Assembly: GCA_964612555.1 (NCBI GenBank)
Contig: CAZTBW010000004.1
Coordinates: forward strand, 123,713-187,712
Length of the DNA: 64,000 nt
Direction of reading: 5' to 3'
Origin: an uncultured Bdellovibrionales bacterium
GTDB lineage: Bacteria > Bdellovibrionota_C > UBA2361 > SZUA-149 > DAOLCO01
Below are positions 7,388 through 60,015 of this stretch, piece after piece. Under the pieces are notes generated by a model, which worked only from the letters and a program-made list of their open reading frames with translations, was not told the DNA's origin and did no database searches. Within the stretch, counting starts at the first letter, position 1. Every line of letters starts with the position of its first letter. The translations under genes were made by a program, and so were the position numbers.

Positions 7388-8062
7388 TTATTCATAGTCT
7401 TTAACAACAACAAGGCTCCCTGCTTCACGTGCCAGTAATACCGGACAAGCGTTTTCTGATTCTTCATTTTTAACAAATCTGTCATACGCATCCTTTTTAT
7501 TTTCTCCAAAGAATAACAGAACAACGGTCTTTGCGGTTTTAATTACGTGCGGAGCTCCGCTCATACGTATAGGTGGTGGTTTTGGTGAGTTTGAGAAAGT
7601 AAAGAAAAGTTTATCGGGATTTTCTTCCCAAGATAAGCCAGGGAAAAGCCCCGCAACATGCGCATCCTCACCTACTCCAAGAAATATAACATCAAACACT
7701 CCACCCAGAGACTGCAAAAGAGAAGTATATTCTACTATCCCTTTTTCTGGTTCATTTGTGTTAAATTCATGTAACTTCAGAGGGAGATCCCTTGTAGCCA
7801 AACCAAGACCTTCTCTCACTATTCTGATATTACTATCAGCATGATCTGAGGGAACAAGCCGTTCATCAATCATAAAAAGGTTGGAATCTCTAAATACACT
7901 CTCTTCCTTAAGCACATCCAGTCGTAATGCTTCAAGTACAGGAGCAATGCTGGTTCCCCCACACACACCAATGAGCGGAGGATGAGCTCGCAAGTTCGAA
8001 GAAAGATATTCAAGAACCGAAGAGAGTCCATCGGCAGATTTTGGGACAATAAAATTTTTCAT
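7388..8062 (-). CDS. 6-phosphogluconolactonase / glucosamine-6-P deaminase family
   Basis: 224 aa; DER-containing motif (LFMIDERLVP) and overall Pgl/NagB family pattern. Confidence 0.7.
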   Translation of the reverse strand: MKNFIVPKSADGLSSVLEYLSSNLRAHPPLIGVCGGTSIAPVLEALRLDVLKEESVFRDSNLFMIDERLVPSDHADSNIRIVREGLGLATRDLPLKLHEFNTNEPEKGIVEYTSLLQSLGGVFDVIFLGVGEDAHVAGLFPGLSWEENPDKLFFTFSNSPKPPPIRMSGAPHVIKTAKTVVLLFFGENKKDAYDRFVKNEESENACPVLLAREAGSLVVVKDYE

Positions 8063-8095
8063 TTTTAAAAACTGTTTAAAAGATTATTTCAGGGA

Positions 8096-8320
8096 TTAAT
8101 TGGAATGTACTGCTATTTCTTTCAAGAACTCTTCTATGAAATTATCCTTAAAGAGATGTGGCACCAGAGAAGGATTATCCACCACCTCATCAATTAAAAA
8201 ATTTCTTAACGCCGGGTGAAGAGACACCGTCCCATCAAAACAGAGACCCACAGTAGCAGCATCAACAAGTGCTTCCGCTGCTCTTCTATATTCATCCTGA
8301 ATAGACATAAAATATTTCAC
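8096..8320 (-). CDS. small hypothetical protein
   Basis: 74-aa ORF, no recognisable motif. Confidence 0.3.
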   Translation of the reverse strand: MKYFMSIQDEYRRAAEALVDAATVGLCFDGTVSLHPALRNFLIDEVVDNPSLVPHLFKDNFIEEFLKEIAVHSN

Positions 8321-8432
8321 TACTGATTAGTTCGAACTTAGTATTCTACCTTGCAAAAAAGCATTTCGCATCAAAAAGAAGGATTTCTTGAAGTTTTTTG
8401 TCCTGTTTCGGACTTTTCAGTCAATTAAAAAT

Positions 8433-9029
8433 CTAATGATTTTCGGCGGATAGATTCACATTTCTCTCCACAATATCAGACTGCCCTCCACTTAGTTCAT
8501 GCGCCCGATATATCAGACTTTGAATTTCTTTTTTAACCGCTTCCTCCCGGGGCTTCTGATCTATGAGGATACCTGCCAGATTTGTAAGCCCATGCACTTC
8601 AAATGGATTCACCTCAAGAGCGGTCCTCAGAAATTCATTTGCCTGCTCTTTCTCACCCCGTAACTCTGCAACATATGCCTTATTAACCCAGGCTCTGGCA
8701 TAAGAAGGGTCTATAAGAATTGCCCGATTAAAAAAACTTTCAGAAGCATCCACTCTCCCTTCACGAAGCGCCACACAACCCAAACCATCCTGCACTTCAG
8801 GTAAATCAGAGTTCATCTGTGCCGCTATTTCAAATGCAGCCGCTGCTTTTTTGAGTACATCATAACTACCCGCATCGAACTCACGCAGATACAAAACTCC
8901 TTTTGCAACAAACGCTGCCGGGTTTTCAGGTGAAGACGGAGACACTTCCTTCGCTATGCCACATGACGTTAAAAAAACGAAGCCACATAGCATACAAAAC
9001 AATAACACTTTTTTTCTCTTATGCCGCAT
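8433..9029 (-). CDS. TPR-repeat lipoprotein, last gene of T3SS-like module
   Basis: Signal peptide + lipobox LTSC, then TPR-like helical repeats; 5' end overlaps sctV stop (start ambiguous 9029/9065). Confidence 0.55.
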   Translation of the reverse strand: MRHKRKKVLLFCMLCGFVFLTSCGIAKEVSPSSPENPAAFVAKGVLYLREFDAGSYDVLKKAAAAFEIAAQMNSDLPEVQDGLGCVALREGRVDASESFFNRAILIDPSYARAWVNKAYVAELRGEKEQANEFLRTALEVNPFEVHGLTNLAGILIDQKPREEAVKKEIQSLIYRAHELSGGQSDIVERNVNLSAENH

Positions 9030-40982: not shown

Positions 40983-41876
40983 TTATCTCTTGCTCGCACT
41001 TGCAACGTGGAGCTTCACGTTTTCTTCTTTCTGGGTATCCCCATCATGGGTATTCCCAGTGGAAGAAAAGCCTTTTAAATAAGCACTCACAGTGCCGACA
41101 AATACTTCGGTTTCAATTTTAAGAACGTCCCTGCTCTCATCAGCAGCTATCCATATTTCTGCTTTCCTGAAGCGTTTTTCTCCTTCAGTGTCAGTAAGTT
41201 TTTTAAGTGAGGGAATCACTTTATATGCTTTTCTCTTCAGTTTTTGACCAGGGAGGGAAATATCCTCTATAGACGTCACTTCAAACGAAATAAGATAGCG
41301 GTTTTTTGCATTATAGACATCAAACGAAGCCTTCTGCCCAATCTTTATGGGAATACTTCTGGCAAGAAACGCTGCTGAGATAGGGTCCAGAGTTTGATTA
41401 TTGGTAACAAACTCCCTCTCTTCTTCGAGCTTGCCATTTTTCTCAAGAACAGAACGTATATGACCATCATCGCCAAAAGTGATTTCACTGCTTTTCTTTC
41501 TTGAGTTCTCGGTCTGGTTAAAGGAAAAGCGAATTGGCTTAAGATTGTCTTTATAAAACAAGCTGTGACTTGTATGACGAAGCTTGTAAAATATCCCGAT
41601 AACCTTATTTGTTTTGGCGTTTGCTTCTACAAAATAGGCATCTGCCGAATCGACTTCTTTATCCTGAACATTAATTGAAGCCGACGCAACCGGGATACCT
41701 TGCCAGCTTACTTCATACTCAAAAACACCCTTGTTAAATTCAGTGGTGTGAGGTGTGTAGTGTTCTGTTTGAACACGGACAGAGGCTGGATCAATATATT
41801 CAGAACTGACTGCACCACTGATACAAAAAATCAGAGCACCTGTTAGCAACACAAGAATGAATAATTTTTTCGACAT
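40983..41876 (-). CDS. secreted protein, possibly DUF3108-like
   Basis: Signal peptide; beta-rich 297 aa; motif YEVSWQGIPVASASI. Confidence 0.35.
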   Translation of the reverse strand: MSKKLFILVLLTGALIFCISGAVSSEYIDPASVRVQTEHYTPHTTEFNKGVFEYEVSWQGIPVASASINVQDKEVDSADAYFVEANAKTNKVIGIFYKLRHTSHSLFYKDNLKPIRFSFNQTENSRKKSSEITFGDDGHIRSVLEKNGKLEEEREFVTNNQTLDPISAAFLARSIPIKIGQKASFDVYNAKNRYLISFEVTSIEDISLPGQKLKRKAYKVIPSLKKLTDTEGEKRFRKAEIWIAADESRDVLKIETEVFVGTVSAYLKGFSSTGNTHDGDTQKEENVKLHVASASKR

Positions 41877-42173: not shown

Positions 42174-44540
42174 ATGTATCTTCTTCGTTATTTCCTTCTT
42201 TTCTTTCTATCCCTCTTTATCCTGTCAGACGCCGCAGTAGCAGCTCCTTTTGATTGCAACAATAATGGCATTGATGACGCCACCGATATCGAACTTGGCA
42301 CAAGTGAAGACTGTAATGGAAACGGCATTCCCGATGAATGTGACGTAAGTGCTTCCGGTTTTACTTTTAGAGAGTTCAAGGAACTTGAATTAAAAAGTGT
42401 TATGCTTAGCGGGTTTCCAAATCAACTGGTGCCGACAAAAGTTGCGGACTTTAATGGAGATGGACATCCTGATCTTTGGGGGATGTTCAGTTATACTACC
42501 TTTGGAGGACATTACATAATATTTATTTATCTGAATCAAGGTGATAACACCTTTACTGCACCAATTGAGATTCCATTTACAGGCACCACCGGTTTTATAA
42601 ATATATCGATATCCGACCCTGTCGCTATAGACATTGATTCGGATGGTGATCTGGATATCGTATTTCGTCATGATACCGTGGCATGGAGACATAACCCGCC
42701 ATCTGCGGGGTTTCTTGTTTCAGTATTGGAAAATGATGGTGAAGGAAATTTCACACGTAAAGAAACCAATATTCCATCACTACTCCCTCCCCGATCAGCA
42801 ACTTCAACACTGCCATCAAAACTTGTGGCGACAAGTTTTGCACACGTTAATTCAAAAGACCTTGCAATGATACATGAAGGCAGGGTGTATGCATTGTATA
42901 ACATCGGAAATCTGGAATTTGTTCATTTTGACATGGGTGCAAGTGGTCAGGCTGATAATCTGGGGTTTTTTCCCGAACGCTTTCCGGGGAGTGTTAATAT
43001 GTCTCAGACAAGAATTTTTAGCTCAACTTCCGATGAAGGGTTTCTTATGGGTCCGGGTGATGGCTCTCTACAGAGATTCACTCATGGAGAGGATATTGGT
43101 TTTAGTGATATTAAACAAGTAGTATCTCCTGAAAACTATACAGCAGCACACCTGATGAAAGGAACGCCGGCAAATCCCGGTAACAAGGGATACAGCACCA
43201 TTATGACTCAGCCATTTTCCGGAGGAGGAAGAAAAACATTTCCGGCAGGTGTTGGCAGTGTTCAAGAGCTTTTCATAGCGGATTTCAATGGTGACGGGGC
43301 TTCTGATGTAGTGTTTTTTGGTGCGGGAGATATTCATTCAAAAAGCGGAATACAAATACTCCTGAATGAAGAGCCTAATGATTTTTCAAATCGCCTGAAC
43401 ATTTTTATGCCGCCATCAGCAAAGCAGGCAATCACAGTGTTTGATTTCGATAATGACGGAAAACCTGATATTCTTTTTAAAGCAAAAGAAGAAGGAAAAA
43501 TGCTTATTGGTTTTAATGGAACAACATATCCTCTTACTCCGGCACTGGAAGCTGATCTTGATGCAAACTATATTCCGGATATTTGTGAACGGACGGTTCC
43601 GGGTGACTTTAATGGAGATAGAAAAGGTGATCGGGTAGTTGTTAGAAACTATTCAGGGCAGCTTTTATGGTTAATCTCACCTGATTCATTTACATATGTC
43701 ACTTCTCCGACCACCAACATTCCATTTGGGCTTGCCGGTGATACACTTCTTGCCGGAGATTTTAATGGTCAGGGAAAAATCAGTCCGGGGGTGATACGTA
43801 AAAATGGTGATTATCTGGACTGGTACTGGCTGAAATCTGATGATTCTACCGCTGTGATTTCTTATGGCTTGAGAAATGATACGCCCCTTAGCGGGTACTT
43901 CAATGCTGATAAAACTCTTGATCGTGTTGTAGTGAGAGATCATCTGGGAGGTTTATTGTGGTTGATCAACACGGATGGGGAAAGTCATTCGGTACATTCG
44001 ATGTATCAGTTTGGGCTCACTGGTGATACTCCTTTTACTGCGGATATGGATGGGGATGGAATATCCGAACTGATAGTTTCGAGAACACTGAGTAGTGGAC
44101 AGGTTGTCTGGTATGCACTTTTTATAAACAGTCAGGAAGTGCTCGGTCCCTACCCCTGGGGACTACGAGGAGACCTTCTTATGCCTCCGACTGATTTTGA
44201 TGGAAGTGGCAGGGCGCAATATCTTGTGGCAAGACCAATTAATGGTTTCCTGAATACATTCCATAACTCACCACTTAGAGAAAATTATAATGTCTATACC
44301 GATGTTCAGAAACTTTTTGGTCTTCCGGGGGATCATCTCCATGTAGCGTACCGATTGGGGCTTCCGTATGGACATCTAAGTGTCTGGCGACCAAGCAATT
44401 ATTTTTGGAATGACGGTTTACAATTTTCTCAGTTCTGGGATTCAATAGGAGAAAGCCTCTTCCCAAGTACTTATGGCTTTACCGGTGATGTACTGATCGG
44501 CATTGATGGAAAAGCCGTCGGGAGATACGACGGAAGGTAA
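42174..44540 (+). CDS. secreted FG-GAP/VCBS repeat protein with N-terminal dockerin/EF-hand-like Ca-binding motifs
   Basis: Signal peptide; DCNNNGIDDATD / DCNGNGIPDECD motifs; repeated DFNGDG..D, DFDNDGKPD, DMDGDG FG-GAP signatures; 788 aa. Confidence 0.6.
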   Translation: MYLLRYFLLFFLSLFILSDAAVAAPFDCNNNGIDDATDIELGTSEDCNGNGIPDECDVSASGFTFREFKELELKSVMLSGFPNQLVPTKVADFNGDGHPDLWGMFSYTTFGGHYIIFIYLNQGDNTFTAPIEIPFTGTTGFINISISDPVAIDIDSDGDLDIVFRHDTVAWRHNPPSAGFLVSVLENDGEGNFTRKETNIPSLLPPRSATSTLPSKLVATSFAHVNSKDLAMIHEGRVYALYNIGNLEFVHFDMGASGQADNLGFFPERFPGSVNMSQTRIFSSTSDEGFLMGPGDGSLQRFTHGEDIGFSDIKQVVSPENYTAAHLMKGTPANPGNKGYSTIMTQPFSGGGRKTFPAGVGSVQELFIADFNGDGASDVVFFGAGDIHSKSGIQILLNEEPNDFSNRLNIFMPPSAKQAITVFDFDNDGKPDILFKAKEEGKMLIGFNGTTYPLTPALEADLDANYIPDICERTVPGDFNGDRKGDRVVVRNYSGQLLWLISPDSFTYVTSPTTNIPFGLAGDTLLAGDFNGQGKISPGVIRKNGDYLDWYWLKSDDSTAVISYGLRNDTPLSGYFNADKTLDRVVVRDHLGGLLWLINTDGESHSVHSMYQFGLTGDTPFTADMDGDGISELIVSRTLSSGQVVWYALFINSQEVLGPYPWGLRGDLLMPPTDFDGSGRAQYLVARPINGFLNTFHNSPLRENYNVYTDVQKLFGLPGDHLHVAYRLGLPYGHLSVWRPSNYFWNDGLQFSQFWDSIGESLFPSTYGFTGDVLIGIDGKAVGRYDGR

Positions 44541-54207: not shown

Positions 54208-55953
54208 ATGAGTAAAATGGTTGACGAAAATTCAAATCAGGAAGCCGGGCAGGAAGATTACTCTTTGGGTGAAAACTCAACACCTCAGAACCTTGAAAAT
54301 GTCTCTAAAGATCACGTGACATCAAAAGCAAGATTATCACGATTGATGAATCTTAAACTTCAACCTGATGAAGAAATACTTGATGCCGCTTTGTCCCTTG
54401 CCTCTGATAAAAACATCAGAATATCAAAGCTTTCAGAAATGGTTCTCAAAGACCCCGTGATTACCCTGGAAATACTGGCACATGCAAATTCCCTTTCAAA
54501 TGAAAAGGCGAGCATTGCCGCAGTTCAAACAGGAGTAATCAGAATTGGTTCTACCCAACTTCTCTCAATGCTAAAAGAACTCAAGACCCGAATCAATAAA
54601 AACTCAGACCCGGATGTAGCGGTAGAGTATGCATCACTTAGAAGACTGAGCGAACGGGCAAGCATCGTTTCAGAGATTTTAAGTTCTCACATACAAAGAG
54701 ATATAATAGAGATTACCCAAACCTGTGCACTTCTCAGCTATCTTGGACCAATGATACTTTGTCAATATCTTGATAGAGAATATCTGGAACTTGCACACTT
54801 AAGAAAAAGAAATGCCCTTGCCTATCGTCTTCAATCCAAATACGGCATCAACTACAATGAAATGTTTCTTCGCTATCTTAAGGATAGAAATCTTCCAAAA
54901 GATATTTTCTATGCATTTGATAAAGAGCTTAAATGTATCACCAGTGCACAATCATCACTTCGGTTTATTATAGAATCCGCTATCGAGCTGGTAGAAGCAC
55001 TGGAAGATGGCAAATGGATGAGATACGGTCCGGGAGCAACGCTTCCGCCTAAAAGCAATATCAGACTCCTGAAAATATCTGACACACAATATGCCACCAT
55101 CTTTGAAGAAATAGAATACAGCCTTGGCATATCCAAGCCCAAAGTTGAAATTGGAGAGACCAACTACTCAACCACTGAAGCAAGAAGCGATGAAGAGGAT
55201 GAAACCTCTGACTCTGAAAGTAAGACAAAACACCTCATTGCATCAAAACTCGCCTCACTCAATAATGACCTTGGTGAAGAGGCTCCAATTTCGACTCTCA
55301 GCCTTTCCCTTGATGAAGAAGAGCTTAAGGCACCTACTGTTATAGTTGATCGTGATGAGTTAATGGATCTTATCGCTTCAAGTGGCTCCGCCGTATTCAT
55401 TGAAAAAACCAGCGATAATCTCGAACTGGAAAAAAGAAATCTCAGTTCCCGTTCACTTGAAGTACTGGAAATGATTGAGTTCATTTGTAAAGGCGCAGAA
55501 TCCAGCAAATCCCTGCTGGATGAATTAATGTCTACCATAACAGATCAGGGACCTTTTAATCGCGCAGCCCTGATACAAATCAATAATTCGAATGAAAATG
55601 TCTTGATTCAAAAAGCGATTGGGGAAGAGTTTTCAAACATCTCTCCTCCGACAGAATTATTCGTTGAAGATCCTTTGAGTCCTCTCTCTACATTTGCAAC
55701 TCGTGTAAGCTCTTTTAATTCATACACCACAAGAGGTATAAAAGATATTGTCGCCCCATTTGGAATATCATCCTACGCCATATCTCCTATCAAGCTCAGC
55801 TCAAACAATACTTTTGTTCTTTATGTAGACTGCGGGGAACACAAGCCCCTCCCTCTTGAGGCAAGAAAAATGTTCAGGCTGGTAGTTGCCCTCTTAAATA
55901 AATCTCTTCCTGAATTTGACAGTGACGGACACAGAGCAATTCCCCTCAACTGA
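54208..55953 (+). CDS. HDOD-domain signalling protein with long C-terminal region
   Basis: Residues ~60-230 fit HDOD pattern (VLKDPVITLEILAHANSLS...VQTGVIRIGSTQLLSML); 581 aa. Confidence 0.5.
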   Translation: MSKMVDENSNQEAGQEDYSLGENSTPQNLENVSKDHVTSKARLSRLMNLKLQPDEEILDAALSLASDKNIRISKLSEMVLKDPVITLEILAHANSLSNEKASIAAVQTGVIRIGSTQLLSMLKELKTRINKNSDPDVAVEYASLRRLSERASIVSEILSSHIQRDIIEITQTCALLSYLGPMILCQYLDREYLELAHLRKRNALAYRLQSKYGINYNEMFLRYLKDRNLPKDIFYAFDKELKCITSAQSSLRFIIESAIELVEALEDGKWMRYGPGATLPPKSNIRLLKISDTQYATIFEEIEYSLGISKPKVEIGETNYSTTEARSDEEDETSDSESKTKHLIASKLASLNNDLGEEAPISTLSLSLDEEELKAPTVIVDRDELMDLIASSGSAVFIEKTSDNLELEKRNLSSRSLEVLEMIEFICKGAESSKSLLDELMSTITDQGPFNRAALIQINNSNENVLIQKAIGEEFSNISPPTELFVEDPLSPLSTFATRVSSFNSYTTRGIKDIVAPFGISSYAISPIKLSSNNTFVLYVDCGEHKPLPLEARKMFRLVVALLNKSLPEFDSDGHRAIPLN

Positions 55954-56367
55954 TTATTCTTTTTGACTATTCTTTTGCACCTGCACTACTGCCGTCTCCG
56001 GTAAGGAGGCGAATATTCCGGCTTTTAGAGTACGAGCGATATTTGTGCTTCGCAACTTGAAGAGTTCAGAAATCTCAGGTTCAAAAATGGAATCTGAAGT
56101 TTCATAGAATATGCGTAACCAGGTATCAAACAACTCCGGTTCGAAATATGGCAGACGACGATGCTTCTCCATAGGGTTACCATGGAACCTCCGTGTCCGG
56201 AGCATTATGGAAGACCAAAAATCATACATCTTTTGCAAATGCTCCGACCAGTGGGCACCTATCGCGTTATCAAAAACGGGTCCCAATTGTTCATCCCGGC
56301 GAACCTCGTCGTAAAAAGTATCTACCAAAGTTTTTATATTTTCTTCTGTAATTGAGTGTTCTTTCAT
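55954..56367 (-). CDS. truncated hemoglobin (group 2/3 2-on-2 globin)
   Basis: TLVDTFYDEVRRDEQLGPVF...HWSEHLQKMYDFWSSIML...FHGNPMEKH pattern typical of trHb. Confidence 0.6.
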   Translation of the reverse strand: MKEHSITEENIKTLVDTFYDEVRRDEQLGPVFDNAIGAHWSEHLQKMYDFWSSIMLRTRRFHGNPMEKHRRLPYFEPELFDTWLRIFYETSDSIFEPEISELFKLRSTNIARTLKAGIFASLPETAVVQVQKNSQKE

Positions 56368-56939
56368 ACTTTCTCACCCTCCCCATGTTCTCTACACAAC
56401 AAGGTACTATCTTCTACATCAAGAGGCTCTTTGGTAAGACCGCACTGATGAGATTTTCCCAATCCGTTTTTTATAAAATACGTGCACGTGTGGCACACCC
56501 CGAATGTTTTTGAATTATTTTCCCTTTGCAAAACGATCAGGAAATTTCTAAGATTTTCTTCAAGCAGGTCACCCGCTTCCGGGTTATTGTGTATAGACCT
56601 GTGAAGTAAAGATTTTTTTTCGAATGAGTTAAGAATATTTTTTGCTTTGGGAAGGAGATGAATATGGACAACCCGCTTATCATGCTCATGCCCGGTTTTC
56701 CTGATAAGTTTTTTTCTTTCAAGAGATATCAGAGTCTGGGACACGGTACCTTTGGTAAGTTTAAGGTACTCGGTCAAACCCAAAGGAGTATTACTGTAAC
56801 GGTTACATCTTGCCAGATACAACAAACATTCCAGTTGGCGCACATTAAGACCCTGAGAATAGGCAAATTCACGCATCTGGGATTTGAGTAAATGATCCAG
56901 CGCCTGAACCAGCCGCAAAATATTAGACACTTGTTTCAT
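56364..56939 (-). CDS. MarR-family winged-helix regulator with C-terminal 4-Cys cluster
   Basis: MarR-like wHTH (LECLLYLARC..TPLGLTEYLKLTKGTVSQTLISLERKKLIRK...DKRVVHIHLLPKA); C-terminal CHTCTYF...HQCG...LLCREH; stop overlaps trHb start (ATGA). Confidence 0.55.
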   Translation of the reverse strand: MKQVSNILRLVQALDHLLKSQMREFAYSQGLNVRQLECLLYLARCNRYSNTPLGLTEYLKLTKGTVSQTLISLERKKLIRKTGHEHDKRVVHIHLLPKAKNILNSFEKKSLLHRSIHNNPEAGDLLEENLRNFLIVLQRENNSKTFGVCHTCTYFIKNGLGKSHQCGLTKEPLDVEDSTLLCREHGEGEKV

Positions 56940-56949
56940 ATCTATATTA

Positions 56950-57016
56950 TATCGACTCGATACTGATTTGACAAACCCGATCTGTCTTGCTACCTTAATG
57001 GTATCGACTCGATACT
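56950..57016. promoter_or_regulatory. divergent promoter with two copies of 13-bp palindrome TATCGAcTCGATA (candidate operator)
   Basis: Copies at 56950..56964 and 57002..57016 (52 bp apart) bracket TTGACA (56967) -35 and a -10-like TACCTTAAT; RBS AAGGAG before trx-like ATG. Confidence 0.55.
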
Positions 57017-57044
57017 ATTAAACTTCATATAAGGAGAAAACATT

Positions 57045-57278
57045 ATGAAAAATGCAGTATTTTATCATGCCGGATGCCCTGTATGCGTTGATGCCGAACA
57101 GAACGTGGCGCATGCCATTGACCAGAACAACTATAAGGTCGAGATAATTCATCTTGGAGAACAAAAAGAGCTACTTGCCAATGCAAAAAAACAAGGTGTT
57201 AAGTCAGTACCGGCACTGGTACTTGATGATAAGGTGTTCCATATCAATTTTGGAGCATCACTTTCAGACCTGGAATAG
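57045..57278 (+). CDS. small thioredoxin-fold protein (glutaredoxin-like, CPVC active site)
   Basis: 77 aa; FYHAGCPVC N-terminal CxxC; AAGGAG RBS. Confidence 0.6.
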   Translation: MKNAVFYHAGCPVCVDAEQNVAHAIDQNNYKVEIIHLGEQKELLANAKKQGVKSVPALVLDDKVFHINFGASLSDLE

Positions 57279-57290
57279 ACGTTTCCAGCT

Positions 57291-57369
57291 TCGGGAGTGT
57301 TAAAAAACACTCCCGAATACAAATTTCTTAAAAAATCCCGAAAATCTTCGGGTCAAAACTTTCTTTTAC
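57291..57369 (+). terminator. two tandem rho-independent terminators
   Basis: TCGGGAGTG-ttaaaaaa-CACTCCCGA then CCCGAA-aatc-TTCGGG followed by TCAAAACTTTCTTTT. Confidence 0.65.
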
Positions 57370-57426
57370 GCGATAACAACATGCCACCTGAGATACCTCC
57401 GCATATAACGTATTGTTTACAAAACC

Positions 57427-57861
57427 GTGAAAGGAAGTTCTCTTTTGGAATTACTGTTTTTACTGATGCTGAGCGGTATTTTAGTTACCGGCTCACACCT
57501 CTATTTCAAGGAAGTGCTTGAAAGGCGCACCCTCTACCATCTTGCAAGCTCTGTCGAGACACTCCTCCAGGGCACCTATGAGACAAGCCAGTACTACGGC
57601 AGTATCTTCTCATTCAATAAAGATATACACGGCAATTTTCAGATAAGAAATCCTCAGCGCCTGTGGTATCAAATCCCCATTAATCAAAAACATGTTATTC
57701 AACACTCTGTCCATTCCTCAGTACAAAACCTTGAATCCATTCAATTCTATCCAAACGGATACAGCTCTCCGGGTAGAATAGAGCTTCACTCAAAACAGTA
57801 TCTTTGCACCTTAAAAATTTCCATGCGAGGGAGAGTTCGTAAAGAATGTTCAAAAAAATAA
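57427..57861 (+). CDS. pseudopilin / type IV pilin-like protein (GspH/FimT-like)
   Basis: GTG start; N-terminus KG|SSLLELLFLLMLSGILV with Gly(-1) and Glu(+5) = class III (prepilin peptidase) signal. Confidence 0.5.
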   Translation: MKGSSLLELLFLLMLSGILVTGSHLYFKEVLERRTLYHLASSVETLLQGTYETSQYYGSIFSFNKDIHGNFQIRNPQRLWYQIPINQKHVIQHSVHSSVQNLESIQFYPNGYSSPGRIELHSKQYLCTLKISMRGRVRKECSKK

Positions 57862-58208
57862 CTGTAAAAATCAAAAACACAAAAACAAGAGAGCATGCGG
57901 GGTTTGCTTCAATCCATATCATCTCTGCACTGATGTTTTCCATGATTCTTTTAACTTCAAGCATGTCATTCTGGAATATCGTAAAAGCAAAAAAACACCT
58001 TGTAAAAAGCATCCACAAAACTCACATTCCATGGTTTCTGGAAGAAGAGGCGAAGAAATACCAATTGCATGCCTTGAAAAATATCCCGTCCGATTCCAGT
58101 GAGTGTAAAATCACAAATACATCCGGTGAGTACATAAAAGAGCTTTTATGTACCGATCAAACAGGGCACCTGAAAAAGAAATTTGCTCTCATCACAGACC
58201 ATGAATAA
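57846..58208 (+). CDS. pseudopilin-like protein (non-canonical, no Glu+5)
   Basis: Basic 19-aa leader ending HAG then FASIHIISALMFSMILL hydrophobic helix; overlaps previous gene. Confidence 0.35.
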   Translation: MFKKITVKIKNTKTREHAGFASIHIISALMFSMILLTSSMSFWNIVKAKKHLVKSIHKTHIPWFLEEEAKKYQLHALKNIPSDSSECKITNTSGEYIKELLCTDQTGHLKKKFALITDHE

Positions 58209-59031
58209 CGATAAAGGTGCACTAATTGCGGGAGCTCTTTTTGAGCTTTTACTGTTTGCCATTGTAGCGTCTCTCACTCTACGTCTTATCCACTCGGTTT
58301 CAAAAGAAACTCTATTTCATATCACTCAGCAAAAAGTGGAAAATAATATTTCAAAAACACTTGCGACGTTCTACTCCATGAACCATAGACCCTCAAACAT
58401 TTGGGGACTGCCGATGTATCAATGGCGAAATGAGCACGAGACTCACCCAAACTACTTGCAAGAAGGAATTGAAAGACTCAAAAACAATAACCGCATAAAA
58501 ACAGGCAGCATATTTCTTGAAACAATAGACTCCTCACCTGTTTTCCTCTCAAGGCATCATTCAGACACTGAAAAAGTCTTTCTGGGGGATATTCCACCTA
58601 AATATGTACAACTCATACGAGAAGACAGATGGATTCTTTTCTCAGCTTCGGGGCTCTATCGAATACGGCAAAAATCAAACAATACATTTCTGCCCACAGA
58701 AAACATCTGGAAAATCAGCTTACCCTCAAGTAGTACACTGACTCCCCTACTGGATGCGACAAAAGAAATTCCCGATAGTGAAAACTTCATACTGCTTAAC
58801 CCGATACAAGATCATGTAATCCTTTATCTCAATCTTCAAAACGAGTTAAGACGCTACTCTCTTTTTACTTATGACAATCAACCCGTGTCTGAACATATAT
58901 CCGGCATTTATCGTACTGCCACACATTGTATCATCAAAGGCTCACTGCGCAGCGTACAAATAGAACACAAATTCCCCTGCAAAAATACCAGCTTTGAGCC
59001 TTTTCTTTATTTTGATTTTCTGGATTTGTAA
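58183..59031 (+). CDS. pseudopilin-like protein (non-canonical)
   Basis: N-terminus NDKGALIAGALFELLLFAIVASL (Gly then hydrophobic helix with Glu); 282 aa. Confidence 0.35.
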   Translation: MLSSQTMNNDKGALIAGALFELLLFAIVASLTLRLIHSVSKETLFHITQQKVENNISKTLATFYSMNHRPSNIWGLPMYQWRNEHETHPNYLQEGIERLKNNNRIKTGSIFLETIDSSPVFLSRHHSDTEKVFLGDIPPKYVQLIREDRWILFSASGLYRIRQKSNNTFLPTENIWKISLPSSSTLTPLLDATKEIPDSENFILLNPIQDHVILYLNLQNELRRYSLFTYDNQPVSEHISGIYRTATHCIIKGSLRSVQIEHKFPCKNTSFEPFLYFDFLDL

Positions 59032-59037
59032 TACCTC

Positions 59038-59910
59038 ATGGGAAAAGAAATATCACCTTACGCTTCCAGTTCTGGAACTGCAAATATAATATTCATATTT
59101 GCTATATTCTTACTTACAAGCCTTCATACACAAATTGGGAATTTGCTTATCGAATCTTCACGTATATTGCATTTTAAAAATATATTCTTAAAAGAAAACG
59201 AAAGGGAAAATATAAAAATCATAAGCTCACTTACAGAATATGGAGAGAATATACCCACAAGAAACATTACTCATCGGAATAGCTCTTTAGTGCACTTTGA
59301 AAGCGACACCTTTATCCAAACATTTCAACCCTTGATGGTATATTCTAAAACCCCTTACACTCCGATACTCTGGAGAAAATTCTTAAAACACACTGAAGAA
59401 ATTTCACCCTGCTCTAATACAGAGTGCATACAGAATGAAACTGTTATCAACAAAAACTCAAGGTTCATTCATAAAAAACTCAGCACCGATTCACTCCATC
59501 TTATCCTTGATGACACCTCAAGGTATCTTGCATTTACTGGCTCACTTGAAGTTAAAAAACATTTGTTCCTTAAAAAAGCCCCAACACTTCCCGAAGATTC
59601 TGCAATCACCATACTTTTTGCAGTATTTGATGAACTCATGATAGAAGAAATAATACTTGATGAAACACTAAGCCAGAATACAATCCAATTTATCTTTTAC
59701 TCCAGCACCTCTATTAACATTAACAAAACACCTAAACATGGAGACTGTCTGAATAAATATAATACCTTATCTTTTTTTATCTCTGCTCCATTTGTTCAGA
59801 TTAACGGTAAAAACGCCGATGTATCCCAGTATGGTGCGTGCATCAGAAATATCTTGCCTCTTTGGTTCCCGGAGAGGAAGATAATTGGATATTTAAGAAT
59901 AGAACCATAG
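59038..59910 (+). CDS. N-terminally membrane-anchored protein, last gene of pseudopilin cluster (GspK/PilX-like?)
   Basis: Hydrophobic N-terminal helix ANIIFIFAIFLLTSL; 290 aa; 7-nt gap to previous gene. Confidence 0.3.
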   Translation: MGKEISPYASSSGTANIIFIFAIFLLTSLHTQIGNLLIESSRILHFKNIFLKENERENIKIISSLTEYGENIPTRNITHRNSSLVHFESDTFIQTFQPLMVYSKTPYTPILWRKFLKHTEEISPCSNTECIQNETVINKNSRFIHKKLSTDSLHLILDDTSRYLAFTGSLEVKKHLFLKKAPTLPEDSAITILFAVFDELMIEEIILDETLSQNTIQFIFYSSTSININKTPKHGDCLNKYNTLSFFISAPFVQINGKNADVSQYGACIRNILPLWFPERKIIGYLRIEP

Positions 59911-60015
59911 ATAGTATCTGATTTTTGATTTATATCTGTAGGGGCAGCCCTTGCGGCTGCCCGCTATGTTCTGTCATAATATCGTGATTATTCTAATTTA
60001 TAATTTTGACCCAAT

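Follow-up and report, generated by a model that had tools for sequence, protein, structure and literature searches.

The 64,000-nucleotide stretch examined here, hereafter the window, comes from an uncultured Bdellovibrionales bacterium (GenBank assembly GCA_964612555.1, contig CAZTBW010000004.1, positions 123,713 to 187,712 of the forward strand), and near its right end it carries four closely packed genes, P1 to P4, whose products all carry at the N-terminus, behind a polar or basic leader, a glycine and a hydrophobic segment. These N-termini raise the question of whether the four genes encode minor pilins or pseudopilins, as had been predicted from the DNA letters, and if so, which filament machine they belong to. 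We conclude that together they probably constitute one operon encoding a highly diverged core minor-pilin set for a type IV filament machine; that machine would most likely be a type IVa pilus, with the pseudopilus of a type II secretion system (T2SS) a less likely candidate, and the host would belong to an Oligoflexia-like (Bdellovibrionota) lineage. The genes are:

57427–57861, + strand: P1, GTG start, 144 amino acid residues
57846–58208, + strand: P2, 120 residues
58183–59031, + strand: P3 read from a TTG start, 282 residues
58201–59031, + strand: P3 read from an ATG start, 276 residues, the start used by gene callers and by the orthologs
59038–59910, + strand: P4, 290 residues

The positions, strand and tight spacing of the four open reading frames (ORFs) given in the original prediction are confirmed, as are its lengths of 144, 120, 282 and 290 residues, with 276 residues for P3 when counted from the ATG at 58201. 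The end of P1 runs 16 nt into P2, and that of P2 runs 8 or 26 nt into P3, depending on whether P3 is read from its ATG or its TTG; a gap of 6 nt separates P3 from P4. An exact look-up of the TTG-started P3 returned no record, whereas the ATG-started protein is on record; P1 (with its GTG start) and P2, as started here, are absent from a 15-billion-protein collection in which P3 and P4 of the same NCBI contig are present, and both are probably mis-started or unannotated in the public records. An antisense ORF at 57695–58018, lying over the P1/P2 junction, was picked by one gene caller on a short Logan contig and is not conserved at the orthologous loci, where the plus-strand genes are.

The same four genes are found intact and in the same order on about nine other metagenomic contigs (L003–L008, L010/L012, L013 and L014), at 22–50% amino acid identity, and it is the comparison with these relatives that gives the N-terminal signals their meaning. 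In the window, P1 reads MKG|SSLLELLFLLMLSGILV (the bar marks the predicted cleavage site) and begins G|SSLLE, with Glu at position +5; this canonical signal and the GTG start are as originally described. P1 is the only one of the four window proteins with Glu at +5, and the signals of the other three are non-canonical, again as had been proposed. P2, with ...TREHAG|FASIHIISALMFSMILL, begins G|FASIH and has His at +5; P3, with MNNDKG|ALIAGALFELLLFAIVASL, begins G|ALIAGALFE and has Gly at +5 and Glu at +9; and P4, with ...ASSSG|TANIIFIFAIFLLTSL, begins G|TANIIFIF and has no Glu5. One detail of the earlier description does not hold: the P3 site had been placed at 'G|ALFEL', with Glu at +4, whereas the true glycine is that of 'KG|', invariant in 7 orthologs, which puts the glutamate at +9. 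Across the P2 and P3 alignments the glycine at −1 never varies; all P4 sequences that include an N-terminus have it too, as do 5/6 P1 proteins, the exception being L006, with Ala.

Such N-termini are rare elsewhere in the window. When a crude set of 65 window ORFs was tested for a leader, a Gly and a following hydrophobic segment at a hydropathy cutoff of 1.7, P1, P2 and P3 passed and P4 just missed (1.64), and a single one of the 61 remaining ORFs (TatC) passed, so the clustering of four such N-termini is not a matter of chance. A regular-expression search for class III signals gave one other match in the window, at the N-terminus of TatA/B ('MFG|LGFSEILVI'), which was rejected as a false positive since Pfam identifies the protein as TatA/B. 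The TatA/B–TatC gene pair itself lies at 15833–16986 (+ strand).

The residue at +5 varies between clades in a patterned way. First, in the clade that includes the window (window, L004, L007 and L003), P1 has Glu at +5 (the L003 P1 is cut off at the contig end), P2 has His, Asn, Gln and His respectively, and P3 has Gly, Gly, Ser and Ala, with Glu at +9 in all four. Secondly, in a second clade (L006, L008 and L010), P1 has Gly at +5, P2 has Glu, Pro and Glu, and P3 has Glu, Gln and Glu. Thirdly, the more distant L013 set has Glu in P1 and P2 and Asp in P3. The P4 family has no acidic residue at +5 in either clade (0/7 N-termini), and neither has the fourth gene of L013; the lack of an acidic +5 residue is the hallmark of the terminal subunit in the GspK/PilX position (for PilX, bioRxiv 10.64898/2026.02.12.705559). 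There is no indel in the P3 alignment between the window's clade, with its Glu at +9, and the second clade. Canonical or near-canonical signals thus occur among orthologs of each of the first three proteins: MKG|VTLVE (L004) and G|YSAIE (L007) for P1; G|FMLLE (L006), G|VILIE (L010) and G|AMTLE (L013) for P2; and G|MILQE (L006) and G|SAIGE (L010), both with Glu at +5, together with G|VVLFD (L013), with Asp, for P3. Because canonical signals are present in these ortholog families, the class III signal G|xxxxE is ancestral for P1, P2 and P3, and the departures seen in the window are real lineage-specific drift. The clade-specific losses and shifts (P2 His and P3 Glu +9 here, P1 in the sister clade) show that the Glu5 rule is relaxed within this complex. 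In the work of Strom and Lory on PilD substrates, Gly at −1 was reportedly required for cleavage, whereas Glu5 is said to matter for methylation and assembly; drift at Glu5 alone is therefore no argument against processing.

Beyond the signal, P1 can be connected to an established pilin superfamily. The prepilin signal models, suggested as a check in the original prediction, reported no match for any of the four window proteins (Pfam N_methyl, PF07963, and TIGR02532), but the P1 ortholog of L004, 50% identical to that of the window, exceeds both cutoffs, with 25.9 versus 21.2 bits for N_methyl and 22.2 versus 16.3 bits for TIGR02532; the L008 ortholog reaches a sub-threshold 16 bits against the prepilin signal model. 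Window P1 itself scores 16.9 bits against the GspH/FimT family model, for which the cutoff is 80 bits (PF12019 and TIGR01708 were tested), and its sub-threshold matches are to GspH (TIGR01708), XpsH, PpdA-like and ComGD models and to no other kind of family; the weak matches of P1 and its orthologs to the XpsH, PpdA-like and ComGD models extend over the whole length. A profile of the P1 family searched against 5.8 billion sequences reached a protein called 'FimT', at E = 1.8e-4, and, at E = 1.4e-3, a 'general secretion pathway protein H' that is positive for PF12019. The C-terminal part of P1 contains the motif F.PNGY..PGRIEL...C..ISMRGRV..C, including a conserved Cys pair, and the form F.P.G...PGRIEL....C.I.IS.RGRV is common to the P1 family and the retrieved FimT and GspH proteins. 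On these sequence grounds P1 belongs to the GspH/FimT superfamily and is a predicted minor pilin in the 'FimU/GspH' adapter position, an assignment at the level of the superfamily and not of an equivalog.

P2 and P3 are assigned by different means. P2 has a 19-residue basic leader, an invariant Gly19 and a conserved Cys pair (C87/C102); the window protein matches no family model, and its orthologs have weak N-terminal matches to the ComGE and PpdA-like models. P3 has the invariant glycine, a conserved motif (NELRR.SL...NQP) and a Cys pair (C243/C260), and neither the window protein nor its orthologs match a family model; in a profile search of PDB, its sole near-significant match is the N-terminus of a pilin. 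More generally, the best PDB profile matches of P1, P2 and P3 are all N-termini of full-length type IV pilins. From size, order and signal, P2 is assigned to the small PilV/GspI/ComGE-like position, and from the same three features P3 is assigned to the PilW/GspJ position. A profile comparison of P3 with P4 detected no paralogy. A C-terminal Cys pair is kept in the alignments of all four families, and such pairs are consistent with periplasmic or extracellular proteins with pilin-like disulfide loops.

P4 is the most distinctive member of the set. It has a conserved glycine (Gly13) followed by a hydrophobic helix, two conserved Cys pairs, and a C-terminal motif, WFPE.K..GF.R. An AlphaFold2 (AF2) model built from an 8-sequence alignment (mean predicted local distance difference test score, pLDDT, 76; predicted template modelling score, pTM, 0.60) contains a 58-residue helix (residues 11–68), low-confidence strands at 74–103, a confident β-helix from about 120 to 260 and a last strand at 280–287. 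The strands at 74–103 and 280–287 fit the solenoid-insertion topology of ComZ-type pilins, at pLDDT 42–68. Foldseek found no significant match for the model in PDB, a P4 profile had no match among PDB sequences even at E values up to 10, and the protein matched no family model. As modelled, P4 lacks the GspK fold, in which an α-helical domain is inserted in the β-sheet of a pilin fold, and the proposed check for GspI/J/K-like folds thus fails for P4 in the strict sense. The predicted architecture, a β-solenoid behind an N-terminal hydrophobic pilin helix, instead matches the tip type represented by ComZ and cyanobacterial PilX, and makes P4 a candidate tip or cap subunit.

The features of ComZ are instructive here. 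In Thermus thermophilus the minor-pilin locus for competence is arranged pilA1-pilA2-pilA3-comZ-pilA4, and ComZ combines a hydrophobic helix at the N-terminus with a pilin domain resembling that of GspK; a β-solenoid, nearest to an ice-binding protein, interrupts this domain between its penultimate and last strands, and ComZ was argued to sit at the pilus tip (PMC6561018). The pilA1-pilA2-pilA3-comZ series (ComZ, PDB 6QVI) resembles the window cluster in that three pilin-like genes are followed by a larger β-solenoid gene, in the lack of PilY1, and in that ComZ, the proposed tip subunit, shares with P4 an N-terminal hydrophobic helix and a lack of typical pilin sequence features. However, there is no detectable sequence similarity between ComZ and P4, P4 is smaller (290 versus 554 residues) with a much shorter solenoid, the GspK-like pilin sheet around the P4 solenoid is not confidently modelled, and the window cluster has no adjacent major pilin gene. 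In cyanobacteria, FimU/PilV/PilW/PilX core sets have been described in which PilX is a terminal subunit without Glu5 and with an ice-binding-like β-solenoid, an architecture found in all cyanobacterial PilX homologs; PilY1 is absent, and the solenoid was proposed to replace it as the tip plug (bioRxiv 10.64898/2026.02.12.705559). The window cluster is likewise a four-component set of the priming kind with a Glu5-less terminal subunit and a predicted β-solenoid (triangular in PilX), but it belongs to a different phylum, no relation is seen at the sequence level, and here the non-terminal P2 and P3 have also lost or shifted Glu5.

The FimU-PilV-PilW-PilX (+PilY1) sets of Pseudomonas and Myxococcus are similar in forming a stand-alone operon away from pilBCD and pilMNOPQ, in having a GspH/FimT-family first gene, in the length of the third protein (about 275 residues, as in PilW) and in the Glu5-less terminal subunit. 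They differ in that the window cluster includes neither a PilY1 nor a PilE gene and matches no PilV, PilW or PilX model, and P4 is larger than PilX and is predicted to form a β-helix. Set against these comparisons, the general kind is already known, namely a core set of priming minor pilins capped by a solenoid; what is distinct here is that none of the window's four proteins reaches the cutoff of a curated model, that the cluster is confined to a barely sampled lineage, that the solenoid pilin is unusually compact, and that Glu5 is redistributed in a clade-specific manner among the non-terminal subunits.

If the four proteins act in the manner of such sets, each would enter the inner membrane through its N-terminal hydrophobic helix and would be cut after the conserved glycine by a prepilin peptidase encoded elsewhere. 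P2, P3 and P4 would then form a staggered complex through their α1 helices with P4 topmost, and P1, the adapter of GspH/FimT type, would join this complex to the major pilin. The complex would prime polymerisation of the fibre and remain at its tip, where the β-helix of P4 may serve as plug and as adhesin or receptor, the role suggested for ComZ of Thermus and PilX of cyanobacteria.

Several observations weigh against this interpretation. The curated family cutoffs are reached by 0/4 window proteins, and past the N-terminal helix no resemblance in sequence to GspI/J/K, PilV/W/X or ComZ could be detected for P2, P3 and P4. The AF2 model of P3, from a three-sequence alignment, has a pLDDT of 42, with only the helix at 4–60 modelled, and in P4 the residues at which a pilin-type β-sheet flanking the solenoid would be expected (67–115) have pLDDT values of 42–57. 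No Shine-Dalgarno sequence is seen upstream of the P1 GTG, and the P1 leader consists of just 'MKG'. Lastly, peptidase, ATPase, platform and secretin genes are absent both from the window and from the related loci of about 20 kb; the narrower statement in the original prediction, that no GspD, GspE, GspF or PilD lies in the window, agrees with a domain scan of 44 window ORFs, which found none. The superfamily placement of P1 and the canonical signals of the orthologs nevertheless bear out the central part of that prediction, namely a four-gene set of minor-pilin or pseudopilin type with non-canonical class III signals, located apart from the machine genes.

Which machine the set belongs to is a separate matter. 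The best surviving alternative, which we consider unlikely, is that the genes encode the GspH-I-J-K minor pseudopilins of a T2SS with its core genes elsewhere, priming a periplasmic pseudopilus that pushes folded proteins through the secretin. The gene order and the approximate sizes fit (P2, with 120 residues, is GspI-sized), P1 is GspH-like and its best weak matches include TIGR01708 GspH and XpsH, the last subunit alone is universally without Glu5, and the quaternary logic agrees, assembly being primed by a tip complex; in addition, the pilin domain of ComZ has been called GspK-like (PMC6561018). Against this, P4 is predicted to be a β-helix and lacks the α-domain of GspK, P3 is longer than GspJ, and none of P2–P4 or their orthologs matched the T2SS GspI, GspJ and GspK models at E ≤ 1 (PF02501, PF11612 and PF03934; TIGR01707 and TIGR01711). 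The gspHIJK genes normally lie inside a gspC-M operon, beside gspG, and there is no surrounding gsp operon in the window and no gsp gene within 10 kb at any of 9 loci. The minor pilins of type IVa pili, in contrast, are usually encoded in operons of their own. All four families have C-terminal Cys pairs, which are more usual in type IV pilins than in pseudopilins and constitute mild evidence in the same direction. Finally, two of the relatives encode a canonical type IVa-like pilin of 163–165 residues a few kb downstream of holB (L008 8405–8896 and L010 15426–15923, both on the minus strand); its signal is G|FSLVE, its four conserved Cys include those of a C-terminal disulfide loop, and it scores 31–33 bits against N_methyl. 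The final 2 kb of the window show no such gene. Because the operon stands alone, P4 is ComZ/PilX-like, the Cys pairs are present and a pilin lies nearby in L008 and L010, a type IVa pilus is favoured over a T2SS, and the evidence leans towards it as the partner machine. The resemblance originally drawn to either GspH-I-J-K or PilV-W-X sets is accordingly upheld in part: the signal pattern is that of H-I-J-K or FimU-V-W-X, but P4 does not have a GspK fold, and the set leans to the type IV pilus side.

A second alternative, which we think quite improbable, is that these are not pilins at all but four periplasmic proteins peculiar to the lineage, held by signal anchors or exported by Sec, such as a membrane-anchored adhesin or β-helix complex, and that their N-termini merely mimic class III signals. 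Glu5 is missing from 3/4 window proteins, no curated pilin model is passed by any of them, the globular domain of P4 has no pilin relatives, and the TatA N-terminus in the same window illustrates that the motif can be mimicked. However, P1, P2 and P3 all have orthologs with canonical G|xxxxE signals, one of which passes both N_methyl and TIGR02532; the C-terminal GspH/FimT motif and the profile link to PF12019 connect P1 to known pilins; and all four families conserve a glycine immediately ahead of the hydrophobic helix, which is not something that plain signal anchors share. Least probable is a decaying relic of a minor-pilin operon no longer built into a fibre, which could account for Glu5 having disappeared from one subunit in one clade and from others in another, for the very short P1 leader and for the lack of a Shine-Dalgarno sequence, but which is at odds with four ORFs intact at every locus across 22–50% identity, with the retention of the glycines, Cys pairs and long C-terminal motifs, indicating purifying selection, and with a Glu at +9 in P3 of 4/4 members of the window's clade, which is not random loss. 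The canonical signals of the orthologs and the intact, motif-rich ORFs are the strongest evidence against both of these alternatives.

A bolder version of the minor-pilin interpretation, to which we give a small chance, is that the Glu5 rule has undergone rewiring and not just relaxation. In P3, in the PilW position, the acidic residue would have shifted by one turn of the helix, to +9, and kept to the same helix face; P2, in the PilV position, would use His, Asn or Gln at +5; and sister clades would have swapped the carriers of Glu5 (P1 versus P2 and P3). This would imply a co-evolved, shifted register of contacts between subunit N-termini and carboxylates, with the cap a compact new β-helix pilin, the adhesin by which a predatory relative within Bdellovibrionota would bind prey or surfaces.

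The distribution of the cluster is narrow. P3 has 2–3 relatives among 5.8 billion clusters, and P4 has 8 representatives among 1.84 billion. Exact look-ups of relatives yielded the contigs L003–L008, L010, L011 and L014, all of which share the block (fumarase)-HDOD-P1-P2-P3-P4-CheY-like response regulator-tmk-holB; L010 is identical to contig DAOLCO010000001.1 of an 'Oligoflexia bacterium' metagenome-assembled genome (MAG). It is from this shared gene order, and not from a marker gene, that the window's organism is placed as a probable Oligoflexia-like member of Bdellovibrionota. In profile scans of genome contigs, a 4-sequence P4 subset found nothing and a P3 clade-II alignment found only the Oligoflexia MAG. 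Two profile scans of metagenome contigs were empty, in a collection that evidently lacks even the Joint Genome Institute (JGI) contigs known from exact look-up. L013 has the more distant and more canonical four-gene set at 8041–11114, with proteins of 150, 86, 265 and 244 residues, located outside the HDOD...tmk context between a 267-residue flagellin gene directly upstream and hslU. A literature search for minor pilins of Bdellovibrionota or Oligoflexia returned nothing specific to them. In nearly all of the relatives, as in the window, the cluster is flanked by the following two genes:

54208–55953, + strand: HDOD-domain protein, 581 residues
60016–60405, + strand: CheY-like stand-alone receiver, 129 residues

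The HDOD gene lies directly upstream of P1 in L004, L007, L008, L010 and L014; in the window's genome, and only there, a three-gene insertion at 55954–57278 separates the two, comprising a globin gene and a MarR regulator gene (both on the minus strand) and a thioredoxin-like gene (plus strand). A functional link between the cluster and these flanking genes was considered and rejected, since the whole block from fumarase to holB is syntenic, the window has the insertion, and the L013 set lies elsewhere.

The limits of the transcription unit are suggested by three hairpins:

57290–57317, + strand: hairpin 1, 12-bp stem, 3′ of the thioredoxin-like gene, with no strong T-tract after it (RNA fold)
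57337–57352, strand unassigned: hairpin 2, 6-bp stem rich in GC (CCCGAA..TTCGGG), flanked by U/A-rich sequence on either strand (RNA fold and terminator scan)
59942–59962, + strand: terminator-like hairpin between P4 and the CheY-like gene, 8-bp stem (7 GC pairs) with a T-rich tail (terminator scan)

The region at 57276–57430 folds with a minimum free energy (MFE) of −34.7 kcal/mol (z = −3.5). Two tandem terminators had been proposed upstream of P1, and both hairpins are stable in the fold, but the first went unflagged in the consensus terminator scan, which picked out the second on the minus strand; this second hairpin is probably a bidirectional terminator separating the cluster from the upstream genes. 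A sigma-70 promoter scan upstream of P1 gave no convincing plus-strand promoter. With stable hairpins upstream and a further one after P4, the four genes look like a self-contained unit, in keeping with the independent transcription unit originally predicted.

Other genes in the window include a flagellin gene (25671–27707, − strand) whose 678-residue product is unusually large and domain-bearing, with normal Flagellin_N and Flagellin_C ends and PD40/WD40-like β-propeller repeats in the central variable region. A cluster at 9019–13549 (− strand) encodes an FHIPEP protein of the FlhA/SctV type (650 residues), a FliN-like protein (173 residues), a YscJ/FliF-family protein (262 residues) and a FliA-like sigma factor; the YscJ/FliF-family protein is SctJ-sized and not FliF-sized, and the cluster could be flagellar or an injectisome-like remnant of a type III secretion system. 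At 42174–44540 (+ strand) is a 788-residue FG-GAP/VCBS-repeat protein, a possible surface adhesin, encoded beside a DUF3108 protein (40983–41876, − strand).

Nothing reported here overturns current understanding. If the interpretation of the cluster as a core minor-pilin set is correct, a minor-pilin architecture without PilY1 and capped by a β-solenoid would extend from Thermus and cyanobacteria to Bdellovibrionota-like bacteria, and it would add four families that curated models do not cover, each with about a dozen or fewer sequences and now annotated as hypothetical. The redistribution of Glu5 would let nature's own variants show which α1 salt bridges the priming complex needs for its assembly. 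Predatory relatives of this group rely on type IV pili for prey entry, and a new tip adhesin in a group related to predators would be a reasonable target for study.

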